Assembly (NCBI GenBank): GCA_013298375.1
Contig: JAAFHM010000002.1
Location: 1-47,060, forward strand
DNA length: 47,060 bases
Reading direction: 5' to 3'
Origin: Ignavibacteria bacterium
GTDB taxonomy: Bacteria > Bacteroidota > Ignavibacteria > Kapaibacteriales > UBA4661
Below the pieces are notes generated by a model, which was given only the letters and a program-made list of their open reading frames with translations, made no database searches and was not told the origin of the DNA. Shown one piece after another: positions 42,315 to 45,643 of the stretch (the first letter of the stretch is position 1; every line of letters begins with the position of its first letter). Both the position numbers and the translations under genes were made by a program.

Positions 42315-42854
42315 TTATACGGTAATCGTCAATTCATTTTTCATCGGATCAAAAGCTGCGGTATAGCGGCGCAGGGGTGATGCCGCCGGACCAACCAATA
42401 CGCGCCCGTCCGACGCCGAAAAACTCGAACCATGACACAGGCAGTTGATTCTCCCATTACTTGGCAATTCTACCGTGCAACCGGAATGGGTACAAATTGC
42501 CGATAGGACAAGAAACTCCGATGCGCTCGTGCGCATGATGACGAGTTGATTATTACTTACTGTTCTGATAATTGCACCACCCACGGACTGCAAACTCGGC
42601 ACTTGAGCAATGGCAATGACATTATCGGCAGCCATTGTCCCTGTGCCGCCGCTTGGTGGTGTCGTACCACCAGTGCTTGTGCTGCCTGTGTTGGCAGGTT
42701 TGGTAACGGTTGTTTCGCAAGCATTGACCAGCGTGATAACTGTTCCAGCACTAACCACCAAACCAAGCATAGATGCAGCCTGCACGAGAAATTCCCTGCG
42801 AGGGGTGCTGTTTTCGGGGGCTTCTATCGTTGGAAATGTTTCTGTTGTATTCAT
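42315..42854 (-). CDS. Tat-signal Rieske [2Fe-2S] protein
   Basis: 179 aa from the ATG at 42854. It has a twin-arginine motif PRREFLV plus an h-region, a Thr/Gly/Pro-rich linker, and the Rieske boxes CTHSGC and CLCHGS. Confidence 0.85.
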   Translation of the reverse strand: MNTTETFPTIEAPENSTPRREFLVQAASMLGLVVSAGTVITLVNACETTVTKPANTGSTSTGGTTPPSGGTGTMAADNVIAIAQVPSLQSVGGAIIRTVSNNQLVIMRTSASEFLVLSAICTHSGCTVELPSNGRINCLCHGSSFSASDGRVLVGPAASPLRRYTAAFDPMKNELTITV

Positions 42855-42911
42855 AAAGATCAAAAATACTGTGGTGAAAAACGTGGTAAAGCAGAGATTA
42901 AAAAGCACGAT

Positions 42912-43550
42912 TTAATTTGTTGAACCGTAGAGCATTGCTTTAATCGTAATGGTTTCGCTTACTTTGCTGCCGACAATTCCTTTGCGCCCGATGACACCAT
43001 GGTCTTTGAGTGAAACGGGAAAGTCATTCACTTTTATCATCACCAAATCATTCGGGCTTTTTTCCACGTAAGTGATTTCGATGGAGACGCTTATTGTCTT
43101 GGAAACACCATGCAGCGAGAATGCGCCTTCCGCCATTGCCTTGGCTACGCCTTTCCCGCCGCCACTTGACACAATCTGTACACTGGAAAGTTTTTTTATA
43201 TCGAAGCTAATATTCGGAAATGATTCGCCATCCAACCAGTCTTTTTCTTGCAAATGGCGGTCGCGCAGCGCGATACCAGTCTGCATCGTGTTGACGGCAA
43301 CTAAGACTTTGCCCGTTGTAGCTTCAAGATTGCCAAGGTCAAGAGCAAATGAACCAGTCACAATAGCCGTACCGCCGTCAATATTTTCCAATGGCGCACG
43401 GCTGCTGAATTGTGCTTGATTGGTGCCAATTTTGTTATTCAACGTAACATTTTTGATGCCTTTGGTATTCAAGTTAAAACCTGTTCCGGCATAACTTACC
43501 GATGCTATGCAAAGGCAGAGAAGCGAGGAAAAAATAGTGCGAAATTTCAT
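42912..43550 (-). CDS. YceI-family periplasmic (polyisoprenoid-binding lipocalin-like) protein
   Basis: 212 aa with a signal peptide. Family pattern: FSSRAPLENIDG, VNTMQTGIALRDRHLQEKDWLDGESFPNISF, FSLHGVSKTISV. Confidence 0.75.
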   Translation of the reverse strand: MKFRTIFSSLLCLCIASVSYAGTGFNLNTKGIKNVTLNNKIGTNQAQFSSRAPLENIDGGTAIVTGSFALDLGNLEATTGKVLVAVNTMQTGIALRDRHLQEKDWLDGESFPNISFDIKKLSSVQIVSSGGGKGVAKAMAEGAFSLHGVSKTISVSIEITYVEKSPNDLVMIKVNDFPVSLKDHGVIGRKGIVGSKVSETITIKAMLYGSTN

Positions 43551-43576
43551 GGTAAGAACGTAAAAATGAAAAAAAA

Positions 43577-43861
43577 TTATGCTGAATTTTTCATAGTGCG
43601 CAGCCCTTGACGGCGCATCATCACAAAGCTGCCAAGTGCGCCCAAGAGCCCAACGCCGCCTATCGGTCCGGCAATATCCAATCCGAGATGAAATTCATCC
43701 TTCCATTCGATATGCTCTTCTTCGGTACCAAAGTTTGGATTCGTCGTTTTGACAACAACCTGAACTTTGTCCTTCGTAAAAATATTACTGCCGTGCGCAA
43801 CCCAAACCCCCAGAGCCGCGACCACGATAACAGCAAATACAGCGATACTAAGTTTCCACAT
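43577..43861 (-). CDS. Small two-TM membrane protein of unknown function
   Basis: 94 aa from the ATG at 43861. It has an N-terminal TM (LSIAVFAVIVVAALGVWV), a hydrophilic segment of ~45 aa and a C-terminal Gly-rich TM (IAGPIGGVGLLGALGSFVMM). Confidence 0.5.
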   Translation of the reverse strand: MWKLSIAVFAVIVVAALGVWVAHGSNIFTKDKVQVVVKTTNPNFGTEEEHIEWKDEFHLGLDIAGPIGGVGLLGALGSFVMMRRQGLRTMKNSA

Positions 43862-43942
43862 AACATTTCCCTCAAAAAAGTTGTCGTAAAAAAGTGGTAT
43901 TTTTGATAGACTCACGCGACAAAACATCCCTCATCTCAAGAG

Positions 43943-45211
43943 TCAATAGTATAAATGCAATTGCAAATTCCAGCGCGTTGAGCGGAAAGTTTCGGTGTCG
44001 TAATAGCGAAATTCGGGTCGAAGTTCGATAAACGGCAGAGGAAAAATTTGCGCGCCGATGGAGGCTTGTGTACTGTATAACTCGGCTATGCCCGCACTGG
44101 CATTGGGGTCGGAAACTCGCGTTGTGCCTTGTTCAAAGCGCACAAAGGGCAGCAAACCGGACAACAACTGATAAGTCAGCATCACCGAATAATTGCGCGT
44201 CTGCCGACCGTCTTTAATGCCTGAAAGCACGTATTCGCCTTGCAACGCAACCCTATCGCTGAGTCCCACGCCAGCAAAAATATTCATCATCGAAAACGTA
44301 CGATTCACAAAATACGAGCCGCCTAAATATGAATTAAAAACGTGGTCTTCGGTGCGAGGAAAAATAGCAGCGCGGGCGAGATAGGACGGCGATGCTGCCA
44401 GCGCACCAAGATTTGATGCGGCTGCGGCGGTGCTTATTGTTTCGCCGAGCAGAGGGGCGGTTTCCCCAAAGGTATTAACGGTGCGGAGTTGCCCAAGCGA
44501 ACGCGGCAAAAACACGCCAGCCGTCAGTGAAAGCCACTGTATGCCCTCAAAATTCACCTCAGCACCGTATTCAGCAAAATTTGGTGCAATAATCGGTATC
44601 GTATTCGTTCCCGCGACTTGGCGGACAAGCATGGTGTGATCGTCGTACCGAATCCCGATAGAGGGCTGGAAATGCCCAATACGCAATTGCGGAAGCGTTA
44701 TACCGGGCTGAATAATTGCCGAAGCCATCCACGCTTGCTGCCCAGTGAAGGGCAAAGCCCGACCCGAAGACAGTGCTAACAAACCGCCAACATCAGCCGT
44801 TGCCTCCACTGTGAGCCAAGGAGTCGCTATCCATGCGGCATAGACTGACGTTTGCATGGGAATAAAGCGTGTTGAGGCATTGGCAGTACGGGGCGAGCGG
44901 GTCATCTGCACACGGGCATCGAAGCCGAAGAGCAGCGCACCATCAGCAATGCTATTGGATTCCGCTTTTTCAATAAACTCCAGCCCAACGCTGTGCGCGG
45001 ACAGTATTTTCATATCTTTTGCCATATACCACCCCAAGTCATTCCGTAAGCCGCTTCCTTGCGAGGTAATATGACAATTCAGGCATTTATTGCCCGTGAG
45101 CAGCGTAAATTGTGGTATCGCCGATACCTTTGTTGCTGAGACGAGCAGCAGAAGTACCACAGAGGCTATCCAGACTCGCCAATAGCGAAAAAACACCGTA
45201 GCAGACATCAT
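43943..45211 (-). CDS. Cyc2-like fused monoheme cytochrome c / outer-membrane beta-barrel porin
   Basis: 422 aa. The signal peptide ends ...ATKVSA. A single CXXCH (C43-L-N-C-H47, nt 45071-45085) lies 12 residues into the mature protein. The remaining ~370 aa have amphipathic strand-like composition and the C-terminus WNLQLHLYY ends in an aromatic residue. Confidence 0.6.
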   Translation of the reverse strand: MMSATVFFRYWRVWIASVVLLLLVSATKVSAIPQFTLLTGNKCLNCHITSQGSGLRNDLGWYMAKDMKILSAHSVGLEFIEKAESNSIADGALLFGFDARVQMTRSPRTANASTRFIPMQTSVYAAWIATPWLTVEATADVGGLLALSSGRALPFTGQQAWMASAIIQPGITLPQLRIGHFQPSIGIRYDDHTMLVRQVAGTNTIPIIAPNFAEYGAEVNFEGIQWLSLTAGVFLPRSLGQLRTVNTFGETAPLLGETISTAAAASNLGALAASPSYLARAAIFPRTEDHVFNSYLGGSYFVNRTFSMMNIFAGVGLSDRVALQGEYVLSGIKDGRQTRNYSVMLTYQLLSGLLPFVRFEQGTTRVSDPNASAGIAELYSTQASIGAQIFPLPFIELRPEFRYYDTETFRSTRWNLQLHLYY

Positions 45212-45232
45212 GAGAAAACTCCTCGTTAGTTC

Positions 45233-45643
45233 TTAATTATTTTTTGCACCTTGATTTACCCAAGCGCGAATAAGACGTTTGTTGCAGTCTGAAAGCGGAC
45301 CCGGCGGCGGCATCTGCGAATACCCCGGAAGTTGTGATGTTACCCCAACAAGAAGTGTTGCATCGGCATAACGCTTCACGTTGCTATACCCCTCCATATT
45401 GACTCCGACGGTTTGAAAAGCGTTAGCATGGCAACTATAGCAATTACCTTGCAATATCGGCTGAATCGTCTTTGAATAGGACACATTCACCGTATCGCAA
45501 GGGTCGGCAACGGTTTTCTTTTCGCCTTTTGCCGGACCGGAAAAATTCTCGCAACCTGCGAAAAATATCACGACGAGAATGAGCATCAAGGCAAGAATTG
45601 GCGCACCTTTGCGCAGCATCGAATGAAATACGCCATAACTCAT
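45233..45643 (-). CDS. Small monoheme c-type cytochrome, probable lipoprotein (PSCyt-like heme context)
   Basis: 136 aa (or 128 aa from the ATG at 45619). It has a signal sequence with a lipobox-like FFAGC. The single CXXCH lies in the context IQPILQGNCYSCHAN (nt 45428-45442). It ends 21 nt upstream of the heme-porin gene. Confidence 0.7.
   Translation of the reverse strand: MSYGVFHSMLRKGAPILALMLILVVIFFAGCENFSGPAKGEKKTVADPCDTVNVSYSKTIQPILQGNCYSCHANAFQTVGVNMEGYSNVKRYADATLLVGVTSQLPGYSQMPPPGPLSDCNKRLIRAWVNQGAKNN

Follow-up and report, generated by a model that had tools for sequence, protein, structure and literature searches.

A putative envelope electron-transfer operon around a divergent Cyc2-superfamily heme-porin in an Ignavibacteria bacterium

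The operon and its heme-porin

The operon described here lies in a 47,060-nucleotide stretch of DNA from an Ignavibacteria bacterium (GenBank assembly GCA_013298375.1, contig JAAFHM010000002.1, positions 1 to 47,060 of the forward strand), the whole of which is referred to below as the window. Five open reading frames (ORFs) on the minus strand, present in the ORF list of the window at 42315-45643, encode a cytochrome c lipoprotein, a heme-porin remotely related to Cyc2, a small membrane protein with two transmembrane (TM) helices (here termed tm2), a YceI-family lipocalin and a Rieske protein predicted to be exported by twin-arginine translocation (Tat). These genes and the features that bound them are as follows:

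45644..45832, minus strand: upstream intergenic region of 189 nt, up to the GH18 gene, presumed to bear the promoter
45233..45643, minus strand: monoheme cytochrome c lipoprotein, 136 aa, with lipobox FFAG-C, heme motif CYSCH, MPP motif and C-terminal W..QGA.NN
43943..45211, minus strand: heme-porin, 422 aa, with signal peptide, CLNCH at residues 43-47, predicted 16-strand barrel and C-terminal Tyr
43577..43861, minus strand: small hairpin membrane protein tm2, 94 aa, with two TM helices, conserved loop and basic tail
42912..43550, minus strand: periplasmic YceI-family lipocalin, 212 aa, matching PF04264 (2.4e-18), with Sec signal peptide
42315..42854, minus strand: predicted Tat-exported Rieske [2Fe-2S] lipoprotein, with RREFL, lipobox LVNA-C, Thr/Gly/Pro linker, CTHSGC and CLCHGS
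42235..42276, minus strand: intrinsic terminator, with a 14-bp stem (6 G-C pairs), a 4-nt loop and a T-run

A preliminary description of this locus had reported five co-directional genes separated by gaps of 21, 81, 26 and 57 nt, and recalculation from the coordinates returned the same values. The upstream region and the strong terminator that were said to bound the group were both found, the latter reading GAAGGCGCAAAAATATTGATTTTTGCGCCTTC followed by the T-run (42276-42235) and ending the five-gene group. No terminator-like site is present in the four intergenic gaps, in agreement with the view that the genes are not split by a transcript boundary. A scan for the sigma-70 consensus, which covers this promoter type alone and is uninformative for the lineage, yielded no site upstream of the operon on the minus strand. 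The GC content of the operon (0.47-0.49) is the same as that of the remaining window.

The heme-porin begins with a hydrophobic leader (...LLLVSATKVSA) and contains a single N-terminal CXXCH. In an alignment of 24 homologues (alignment A1), C43, C46 and H47 are invariant, the mean column identity is 48%, and the barrel is unusually conserved. Further invariant positions are P118-M119-Q120, G179-x-F181-Q182-P183, Y189-D190-D191-H192-T193, the alternating E396/R398/E400/R402, and H419. The AlphaFold2 (AF2) model of the protein (pLDDT 83.7, pTM 0.80) has 16 long strands, and a Foldseek search of the Protein Data Bank (PDB) with this model placed OprP (2o4v) at rank 1 and OprO (4rjw) at rank 3. 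The porin is, on this model, a predicted outer-membrane 16-strand barrel with one covalent c-type heme at its N-terminus. No family was assigned to it by Pfam or NCBIfam, its profile matched none of the PDB sequences at E-values up to 1, and a tblastn search of 72,556 plasmids, assumed to include Cyc2-bearing Ralstonia/Burkholderia replicons, gave no match at E-values up to 1. Its homologues are all annotated as 'hypothetical' and come from Kapabacteria, Ignavibacteria, Bacteroidota and Latescibacteria. Among 1.84 billion representative sequences, the family comprises 142 clusters (50% identity) at E<=1e-30, 313 at E<=1e-10 and 838 at E<=1e-3.

Keffer et al. (2021, PMC8406198) defined Cyc2 by the motif AXPXFAR[Q/K][T/Y] before CXXCH and PXL after it, and sequences without PXFAR[Q/K][T/Y] were dropped from their screen; the protein was modelled on OprO/OprP-type templates as a 16-strand barrel (PMC8406198). 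The window porin resembles the Cyc2 proteins of A. ferrooxidans and M. ferrooxydans (Cyc2-PV1) in its signal peptide, its single N-terminal CXXCH, its length (about 400 aa in these proteins, with 365 aa as the minimum for Cyc2) and, in the AF2 model, its 16-strand OprO/OprP-like barrel. The sequence around the heme motif is only partly shared. The window porin reads AIPQFTLLT-GNK-CLNCH (family consensus A[LI]PQF[ST]L[LI]TGN[RK]C), in which A-x-P-x-F, the T and the spacing (A-x-P-x-F ... T-G-x-x-C-x-x-C-H) are retained and the A-R-[Q/K] of Cyc2 is changed to [ST]-L-[LI]. Downstream of the heme motif, PXL is absent from both the window porin (CH-ITSQGSGLRN) and the family consensus (CHVNxQGGGLRN), which contains no proline; of 75 canonical Cyc2 sequences, all (100%) have the Pro of PXL and 95% have the Leu.

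The canonical sequences used in this comparison were obtained by scanning metagenomes for the published motif with an assumed spacing of A-x-P-x-F-A-R-[QK]-[TY]-x3-C-x-x-C-H; more than 120 matches were found, from which 79 full-length canonical Cyc2 ORFs were recovered and 75 were used in the profile alignment. An hhalign comparison of A1 with these 75 sequences gave a probability of 98.5% (E 1.8e-14; 353 columns) and placed the heme motifs in register, an agreement that is partly circular at the motif columns because the canonical set was picked by motif. The barrel alone aligned with canonical Cyc2 at 95% in local mode, to be read with the caveat that beta-barrels can inflate profile scores. 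A jackhmmer search seeded with the window porin reached canonical Cyc2 in 70 loci. A hidden Markov model (HMM) of canonical Cyc2 built in this study scored the window porin at 15.5 bits, compared with at least 66.9 bits for canonical members, and in a search of 11,323 ORFs, its matches in the loci of the Fibrobacterota-Chlorobiota-Bacteroidota (FCB) group were to heme-porins only. We consider the relationship to be real because the barrel aligns on its own and because the matches of the HMM are specific.

Canonical Cyc2 contains no conserved Met, second His or DDHT, and its barrel is barely conserved. Distant members of the window porin family carry LPRFA[LV]xxG..C..CH.NPTGG, which lies between the two motifs; DDHT and the Met are preserved in these members. 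Judged from these sequence comparisons, the window porin is most simply placed in a remote sister family within the Cyc2 superfamily, outside canonical Cyc2. The designation 'Cyc2-like' in the preliminary description thus holds as remote homology and does not extend to FAR[Q/K][T/Y] or PXL. Surveys have already recorded Cyc2-like genes in Ignavibacteriales and Bacteroidetes (PMC6344600; PMC8478452), so that the heme-porin itself belongs to a known kind.

Recurrence of the gene set across phyla

The neighbourhood survey took one genome per species and covered the best 80 of 193 loci that contain relatives of the porin, plus the window, yielding 81 loci in which the porins are 35-97% identical. 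Partner genes were detected by tblastn and then by jackhmmer on all locus ORFs, and were counted when located within a few kb of the porin gene. The nearest public relative of the window is locus L001 of an Ignavibacteria/Kapabacteria metagenome-assembled genome (MAG), the porin of which is 97% identical.

The tm2 gene was found near the porin gene in 68 of the 81 loci and is the most faithful partner of the porin, followed by the genes for the Rieske protein (55 loci), the cytochrome c lipoprotein (39) and YceI (34). Combinations of tm2 and Rieske are present in 49 loci and those of tm2, YceI and Rieske in 27, and only five porin genes have no partner at all. The complete five-gene set was identified in eight loci, which belong to three clades and show two gene orders. 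The commonest architectures are cytochrome c-porin-tm2-Rieske (20 loci), porin-tm2-YceI-Rieske (17 loci), porin-tm2 (14 loci, mostly Latescibacterota MAGs) and the five-gene order of the window (6 loci). The conserved unit is therefore a porin and tm2 core, usually accompanied by the Rieske protein, with YceI or cytochrome c as variable members. The genes of the module recur across Kapabacteria, Ignavibacteria and Bacteroidota, and the porin and tm2 core is also present in Latescibacterota. Conservation of the five-gene synteny in relatives, which the preliminary description had proposed as the point to check, was thus observed for the partners across phyla, but all five genes remain together in only eight of the 81 loci.

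Two loci, L050 and L078, contain the same five genes in a different order (Rieske-porin-cytochrome c-YceI-tm2). In a rough neighbour-joining tree rooted on canonical Cyc2, the full set is found in this pair, which is basal, in the clade of L043 and in the clade of the window, suggesting that the five-gene set is ancestral and that losses occurred later. The flanking genes are housekeeping genes that are unrelated between clades. In L052, the YceI-Rieske gene pair is duplicated in tandem. In L057 (8011-9162) and L059 (2987-4138), tm2 and YceI form one ORF that consists of tm2, a basic linker, the YceI signal peptide as a third helix, and the YceI domain; because the MAGs containing L057 and L059 are closely related, the two fusions represent one event. 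This arrangement hints, as a Rosetta-stone sign, at a physical association of the two proteins and, from its topology, both the loop of tm2 and the domain of YceI would be periplasmic. Taken together, the changed flanks, the reordered set, the duplication of a gene pair and the fusion indicate selection for the gene set rather than an inherited gene order.

As a control, 120 canonical Cyc2 loci were analysed. Although this control is rough, many of the loci being short, tm2 and YceI were found in none of them. Nine of the 120 loci contain genes for TM-anchored bc-type Rieske proteins, none of which adjoins the Cyc2 gene. In the searchable open-access literature, we found no description of a porin of this type in connection with a Rieske protein, YceI or tm2. 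Both results agree with the earlier view that the arrangement is undescribed, and it probably represents a new route for electrons across the cell envelope.

Several other genes recur beside the porin gene, namely those for LpxH-like, RsmB-like, HutH, PanB, DCC-family and Ig-repeat proteins. They were considered as parts of the module and set aside, since they follow the clade-level gene order. The idea that YceI and cytochrome c are strict alternatives was also rejected because both are present in at least eight loci from four clades. In some Latescibacterota chromosomes (L025, L030 and L037), inserted genes interrupt or separate the porin-tm2 pair, and L037 contains repeated porin fragments beside repeated genes of transposon-associated appearance.

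Partner proteins and surroundings of the operon

The Rieske protein matches PF00355 (5e-12, 46 bits against a cutoff of 20.3) and, just above the cutoff, the Tat-signal family UCR_Fe-S_N (2e-5, 24.3 bits against 24). Its gene starts with ATG, with an alternative GTG at 42908. The Tat motif of the window protein is TPRREFLVQAA, and RRxF[LI] is present in nearly all of the 55 homologues that were aligned. The Tat h-region ends in a lipobox, LVNA-C in the window and L[VIL]x[AGS]C[EQD] in the homologues, and the conservation of this lipobox indicates a predicted Tat-exported lipoprotein rather than the soluble carrier envisaged in the preliminary description, in which the Tat signal itself had been correctly recognised. 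The Thr/Gly/Pro-rich linker described there is indeed present in the window protein, but it is restricted to the window's own clade. The ligands of the cluster (CxH and CxxH) are kept in all full-length homologues. The Cys pair that forms the disulfide is found in most of them and has been lost jointly in several lineages, and box II is often followed by GA or KA and then F instead of by GS and then Y; in light of established Rieske biochemistry, these substitutions suggest a middling potential. One locus, L019, encodes a two-domain Rieske fusion.

In comparisons with curated models, the protein scored far under the cutoffs for the Rieske subunits of bc1 (44 against 97 bits), b6f (40 against 250 bits) and arsenite oxidase (26 against 96 bits), and likewise for QcrA. 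Its closest solved chains, as judged by matches to PDB sequences, are small b6f and PetC3-type Rieske proteins. No cytochrome b family is among the recurrent neighbours in the 81 loci, and the neighbourhood survey never placed the Rieske gene with a cytochrome b or with the large subunit of an oxygenase or arsenite oxidase. The possibility raised earlier, that this protein is a subunit of one of the latter enzymes, is thus contradicted by its association with the porin.

In the clade of loci L046-L080, many Rieske homologues (e.g. those of L048 and L072) read C-E-[K/Q/R/T]-D-E after the lipobox Cys. This sequence resembles the lipoprotein surface-export signal of Bacteroidetes, K-(D/E)2 (PMC5080379); the window protein (CETTVTK) is without such a signal. 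From this resemblance, the Rieske protein may have a cell-surface function in some clades. In the same clade, the cytochrome c lipoproteins contain CX4CH (e.g. C-G-V-G-G-C-H) in place of CXXCH and are encoded 1-2 kb upstream of the porin gene, a 340-aa lipoprotein with a weak DcrB-like match is encoded between the cytochrome c and the porin, and YceI is absent.

The start of tm2 (MWK) is conserved and backed by 68 homologues, and a longer ORF extends to 43927. The protein consists of an N-terminal TM helix, a loop with the sequence I[FY][TS]KD..VV..D.LFGT...F.LGL, a C-terminal TM helix and a basic tail. It matches no family in Pfam or NCBIfam, and its homologues are all named 'hypothetical'. 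A role as a redox or heme-binding subunit was ruled out, since no Cys, His or Met is conserved in the alignment, which argues instead for a structural, docking or assembly partner. The C-terminal helix was also considered as a sortase-type signal and rejected because an insert of variable length (0-12 residues) separates GL(L/D)P from the helix.

In YceI, residues 53-205 match PF04264 with 67.4 bits (cutoff 23.7), and the signal peptide is MKFRTIFSSLLCLCIASVSYA. Its matches among PDB sequences are polyisoprenoid-binding proteins, and a search of its homologues for domain fusions returned single-domain proteins only. The cytochrome c lipoprotein contains CYSCH and, as a candidate for the distal Met motif of class I-like c-type cytochromes, QMPPPG, and its direct matches are below threshold (Haem_bd, 17.3 against 27 bits; c551, 17.5 against 118 bits). 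All 39 porin-adjacent homologues collected by jackhmmer have a lipobox together with CXXCH or CX4CH, and the homologue in L007 matches PSCyt1 with 38.1 bits (cutoff 22).

Genomes of the window's clade also carry a paralogous cluster of the type found in L007, L008 and L009, in which a 449-aa diheme peroxidase of the CCP_MauG family (PF03150, 3.8e-50; 6474-7823 in L007) is encoded between YceI and Rieske. Each genome of the window's clade has, in addition, a second paralogue of the heme-porin without partner genes (L011, L013 and L014, from the same MAGs as L002, L005 and L001, respectively), which adjoins a DUF4126 membrane protein in L014 and a DUF1207 protein in L011.

Outside the operon, the window carries genes for ordinary heterotrophic functions. 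Neither an oxidase nor a cytochrome b gene was found among these ORFs, and Rfam and tRNA scans of the window gave no matches. Convergent with the operon are two tandem paralogues on the plus strand (38887-40506 and 40534-42207; 539 and 557 aa), which have signal peptides and Gly/Ala-rich hydrophobic stretches and match no Pfam or NCBIfam family; in L001, tblastn detected a third such stretch with about 60% identity to the 539-aa protein, suggesting a third copy there. Two overlapping genes about 10 kb from the operon (30884-31923, plus strand) may form a further extracytoplasmic redox pair. One encodes a putative protein of lumazine-binding-like type (PF12893, 1.8e-7) and the other a protein with a DOMON domain (PF03351, 4.8e-13); in extracytoplasmic proteins, such domains are often sites of heme b or sugar binding. 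Also in the window are genes for a large N6-adenine methylase (Eco57I/MmeI type; 34184-36307, plus strand), which is probably a restriction-modification enzyme of type IIG, and for a putative endonuclease of the Uma2 family (18536-19354, minus strand).

Proposed electron route and its alternatives

In known Cyc2 pathways, electrons are passed to soluble c-type cytochromes, rusticyanin, terminal oxidases or bc1. The window porin differs from Cyc2 in its partners, which are tm2, the Rieske lipoprotein and YceI; the latter two recall components of other systems. According to the account of Veit et al. (2016) given in PMC12341915, PetC3 of cyanobacteria is a stand-alone Rieske lipoprotein on the periplasmic face of the inner membrane. 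The window protein is similar in being a small single-domain Rieske protein of the bc/b6f type that is predicted to be lipid-anchored and belongs to no cytochrome b complex, but differs in coming from another phylum, in sharing an operon with a heme-porin, in its Thr/Gly/Pro tether and in the loss of the disulfide in some homologues. Relatives of YceI are known to bind ubiquinone-8 or other polyisoprenoids. The YceI-like (X158) domains of Cbp2D and Cbp2E from Cellvibrio and Saccharophagus bind ubiquinone-8, and in Cbp2D they adjoin c-type cytochrome domains (PMC8981238). In the BcnA-LcoA system of Burkholderia, the membrane cytochrome b561 LcoA has been proposed to re-reduce the quinone bound by the lipocalin, and lcoA-bcnA fusions are known (PMC9113575). 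The present operon shares with these systems a secreted YceI fold beside extracytoplasmic redox proteins and, in the tm2-YceI ORF, a fusion with a membrane partner, whereas it contains neither a cytochrome b561 nor a carbohydrate-binding module, and the redox proteins encoded beside YceI are of the Rieske, c-type cytochrome and heme-porin types. No Pfam match to cytochrome b561 was obtained among the operon and neighbouring window ORFs scanned, nor is this family among the recurrent neighbours. In MtrCAB, MtoAB and PioAB, too, heme is housed in a beta-barrel through which electrons cross the outer membrane; however, in these systems the barrel has 26 strands and the decaheme protein is a separate one (PMC8406198), in contrast to the single heme fused to a 16-strand barrel in the window, and the operon contains no multiheme ORF.

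We propose that these genes specify an envelope module for electron transfer that is conserved in the FCB group and built around the divergent Cyc2-superfamily heme-porin, with inward flow from Fe(II) as the most likely direction; we give this reading a probability of roughly 0.5. As in Cyc2, single electrons would cross the outer membrane through the heme-porin. The cytochrome c and Rieske lipoproteins, as one-electron carriers, would relay them along the periplasmic faces of the membranes, and YceI would carry an isoprenoid quinone, which in these organisms is menaquinone. Electron exchange between this quinone and the Rieske cluster would join the conduit to the quinone pool with no need for a cytochrome b. 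At the inner membrane, tm2 would serve to anchor or assemble the complex. The reductant would be a dissolved substance outside the cell, most probably Fe(II); after its oxidation at the porin heme, the electrons would move inward and reach the respiratory chain. This direction, with Fe(II) as the source, was ranked first because Fe(II) oxidation is the sole activity demonstrated in the Cyc2 superfamily (PMC8406198).

Direction is nevertheless the weakest step of this explanation, and a number of observations speak against it or against individual steps of the route. The chemistry of the porin may differ from that of Cyc2, since FAR[Q/K][T/Y] and PXL are absent and the family has its own invariant set (the Met of PMQ, DDHT, H419 and a charged lumen). 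A middling potential of the Rieske cluster would lie below the +208 mV of the heme in Cyc2-PV1 (PMC8406198), making inward flow slightly uphill. YceI is missing from 47 of the 81 loci, and in the Latescibacterota clade tm2 is the only partner of the porin, except in L045, which keeps YceI and Rieske. A YceI protein 65% identical to that of the window is encoded alone between prfA and a sigma factor gene, and one 46% identical is again encoded inside a cluster. The diheme peroxidase inside the paralogous cluster points to another possible electron sink. The source MAGs are, judged from the record titles, mostly from lakes, groundwater, soil, sludge and hot springs, and appear to be heterotrophs and not classic iron oxidisers.

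In an alternative reading, electrons would flow outward, YceI (possibly docked on tm2) taking up menaquinol from the inner membrane, the Rieske protein oxidising it, and cytochrome c and the heme-porin passing the electrons to external acceptors, for example chelated Fe(III), humic substances or surface oxygen. The Rieske cluster is known as the primary quinol oxidant in bc1 and b6f, the features of the present Rieske protein suggest a potential between those of menaquinol and a c-type heme at about +200 mV, which would make every step downhill, and both the tm2-YceI fusion and the tandem duplication of YceI-Rieske fit a chain of pick-up and hand-over. Cyc2-like genes have also been reported in Fe(III)-reducing Ignavibacteriaceae and in humic-lake heterotrophs (PMC6344600; compare PMC8478452), and the non-iron habitats of the source MAGs are likewise in favour of this direction. 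However, a quinol gives two electrons and the fate of the semiquinone is unexplained without a cytochrome b, YceI is missing from many loci, and no member of the Cyc2 superfamily has been demonstrated to be a reductase; we consider outward flow rather unlikely. We are similarly doubtful about a more specific scheme, a novel trans-envelope respiratory conduit in which YceI would ferry menaquinol/menaquinone between the inner membrane, where it docks on tm2, and the Rieske lipoprotein, and in which the latter would perform quinol/quinone chemistry without a cytochrome b and be wired to the heme-porin via the cytochrome c lipoprotein.

The same proteins might also form an envelope antioxidant system comparable to BcnA-LcoA. 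YceI would then hold a quinone or a peroxidised lipid, the lipoproteins would supply or remove electrons, and the heme-porin, together with the diheme peroxidase in the paralogous cluster, would dispose of peroxide, superoxide or Fe(II) at the outer membrane and thereby limit Fenton damage. YceI lipocalins, together with a membrane redox protein, counter peroxyl radicals of lipids, and genes in which a lipocalin is fused to a cytochrome have been described (PMC9113575). A link to cell-envelope homeostasis has been described for PetC3 (PMC12341915), which is the closest Rieske lipoprotein that has been characterised, the CCP_MauG peroxidase lies within the clusters of L007-L009, and the hosts are aerobic or microaerobic heterotrophs of non-iron habitats. 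This explanation is weakened by the distribution of the genes: cytochrome b561 occurs in none of the loci and the peroxidase in only three of the 81, and neither the need for a trans-outer-membrane heme-porin, the most conserved component, nor the minimal unit of porin and tm2 is accounted for. We regard it as rather improbable. A chance juxtaposition or inherited gene order, or a Rieske protein that belongs to a bc complex, an oxygenase or an arsenite oxidase encoded elsewhere, is effectively excluded. It might be argued from the small number of loci with all five genes (eight of 81), from the close YceI homologue outside a cluster and from the bc-type Rieske genes located within a few kb in some canonical Cyc2 loci. 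Against this, the partners stay with the porin while the flanks change wholly, the set is retained despite the shuffled order in L050 and L078, fusion and pair duplication have occurred, tm2 and YceI are present in none of the 120 canonical Cyc2 loci, and the Rieske protein carries a predicted lipid anchor of its own and scores far under the cutoffs of the bc1, b6f and arsenite oxidase models.

Few parts of neutrophilic iron oxidation, or of extracellular electron transfer in general, are as poorly resolved as the route that electrons take beyond a heme-porin of the Cyc2 type, which is usually inferred from proteobacterial models. The present analysis adds a heme-porin sister family from Kapabacteria, Ignavibacteria, Bacteroidota and Latescibacterota with its own set of partners, and offers concrete candidates for the periplasmic relay proteins. 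It also provides a second physiological context for stand-alone Rieske lipoproteins like PetC3 and for the enigmatic YceI family. In marker-gene surveys, these porins, which lack the Cyc2 motif and score weakly, may be missed, or heterotrophs that are abundant in fresh water and soil may be credited with 'iron oxidases' without justification. If YceI does ferry quinone to the Rieske lipoprotein in the manner outlined above, the operon would represent a previously unrecognised type of trans-envelope respiratory conduit.

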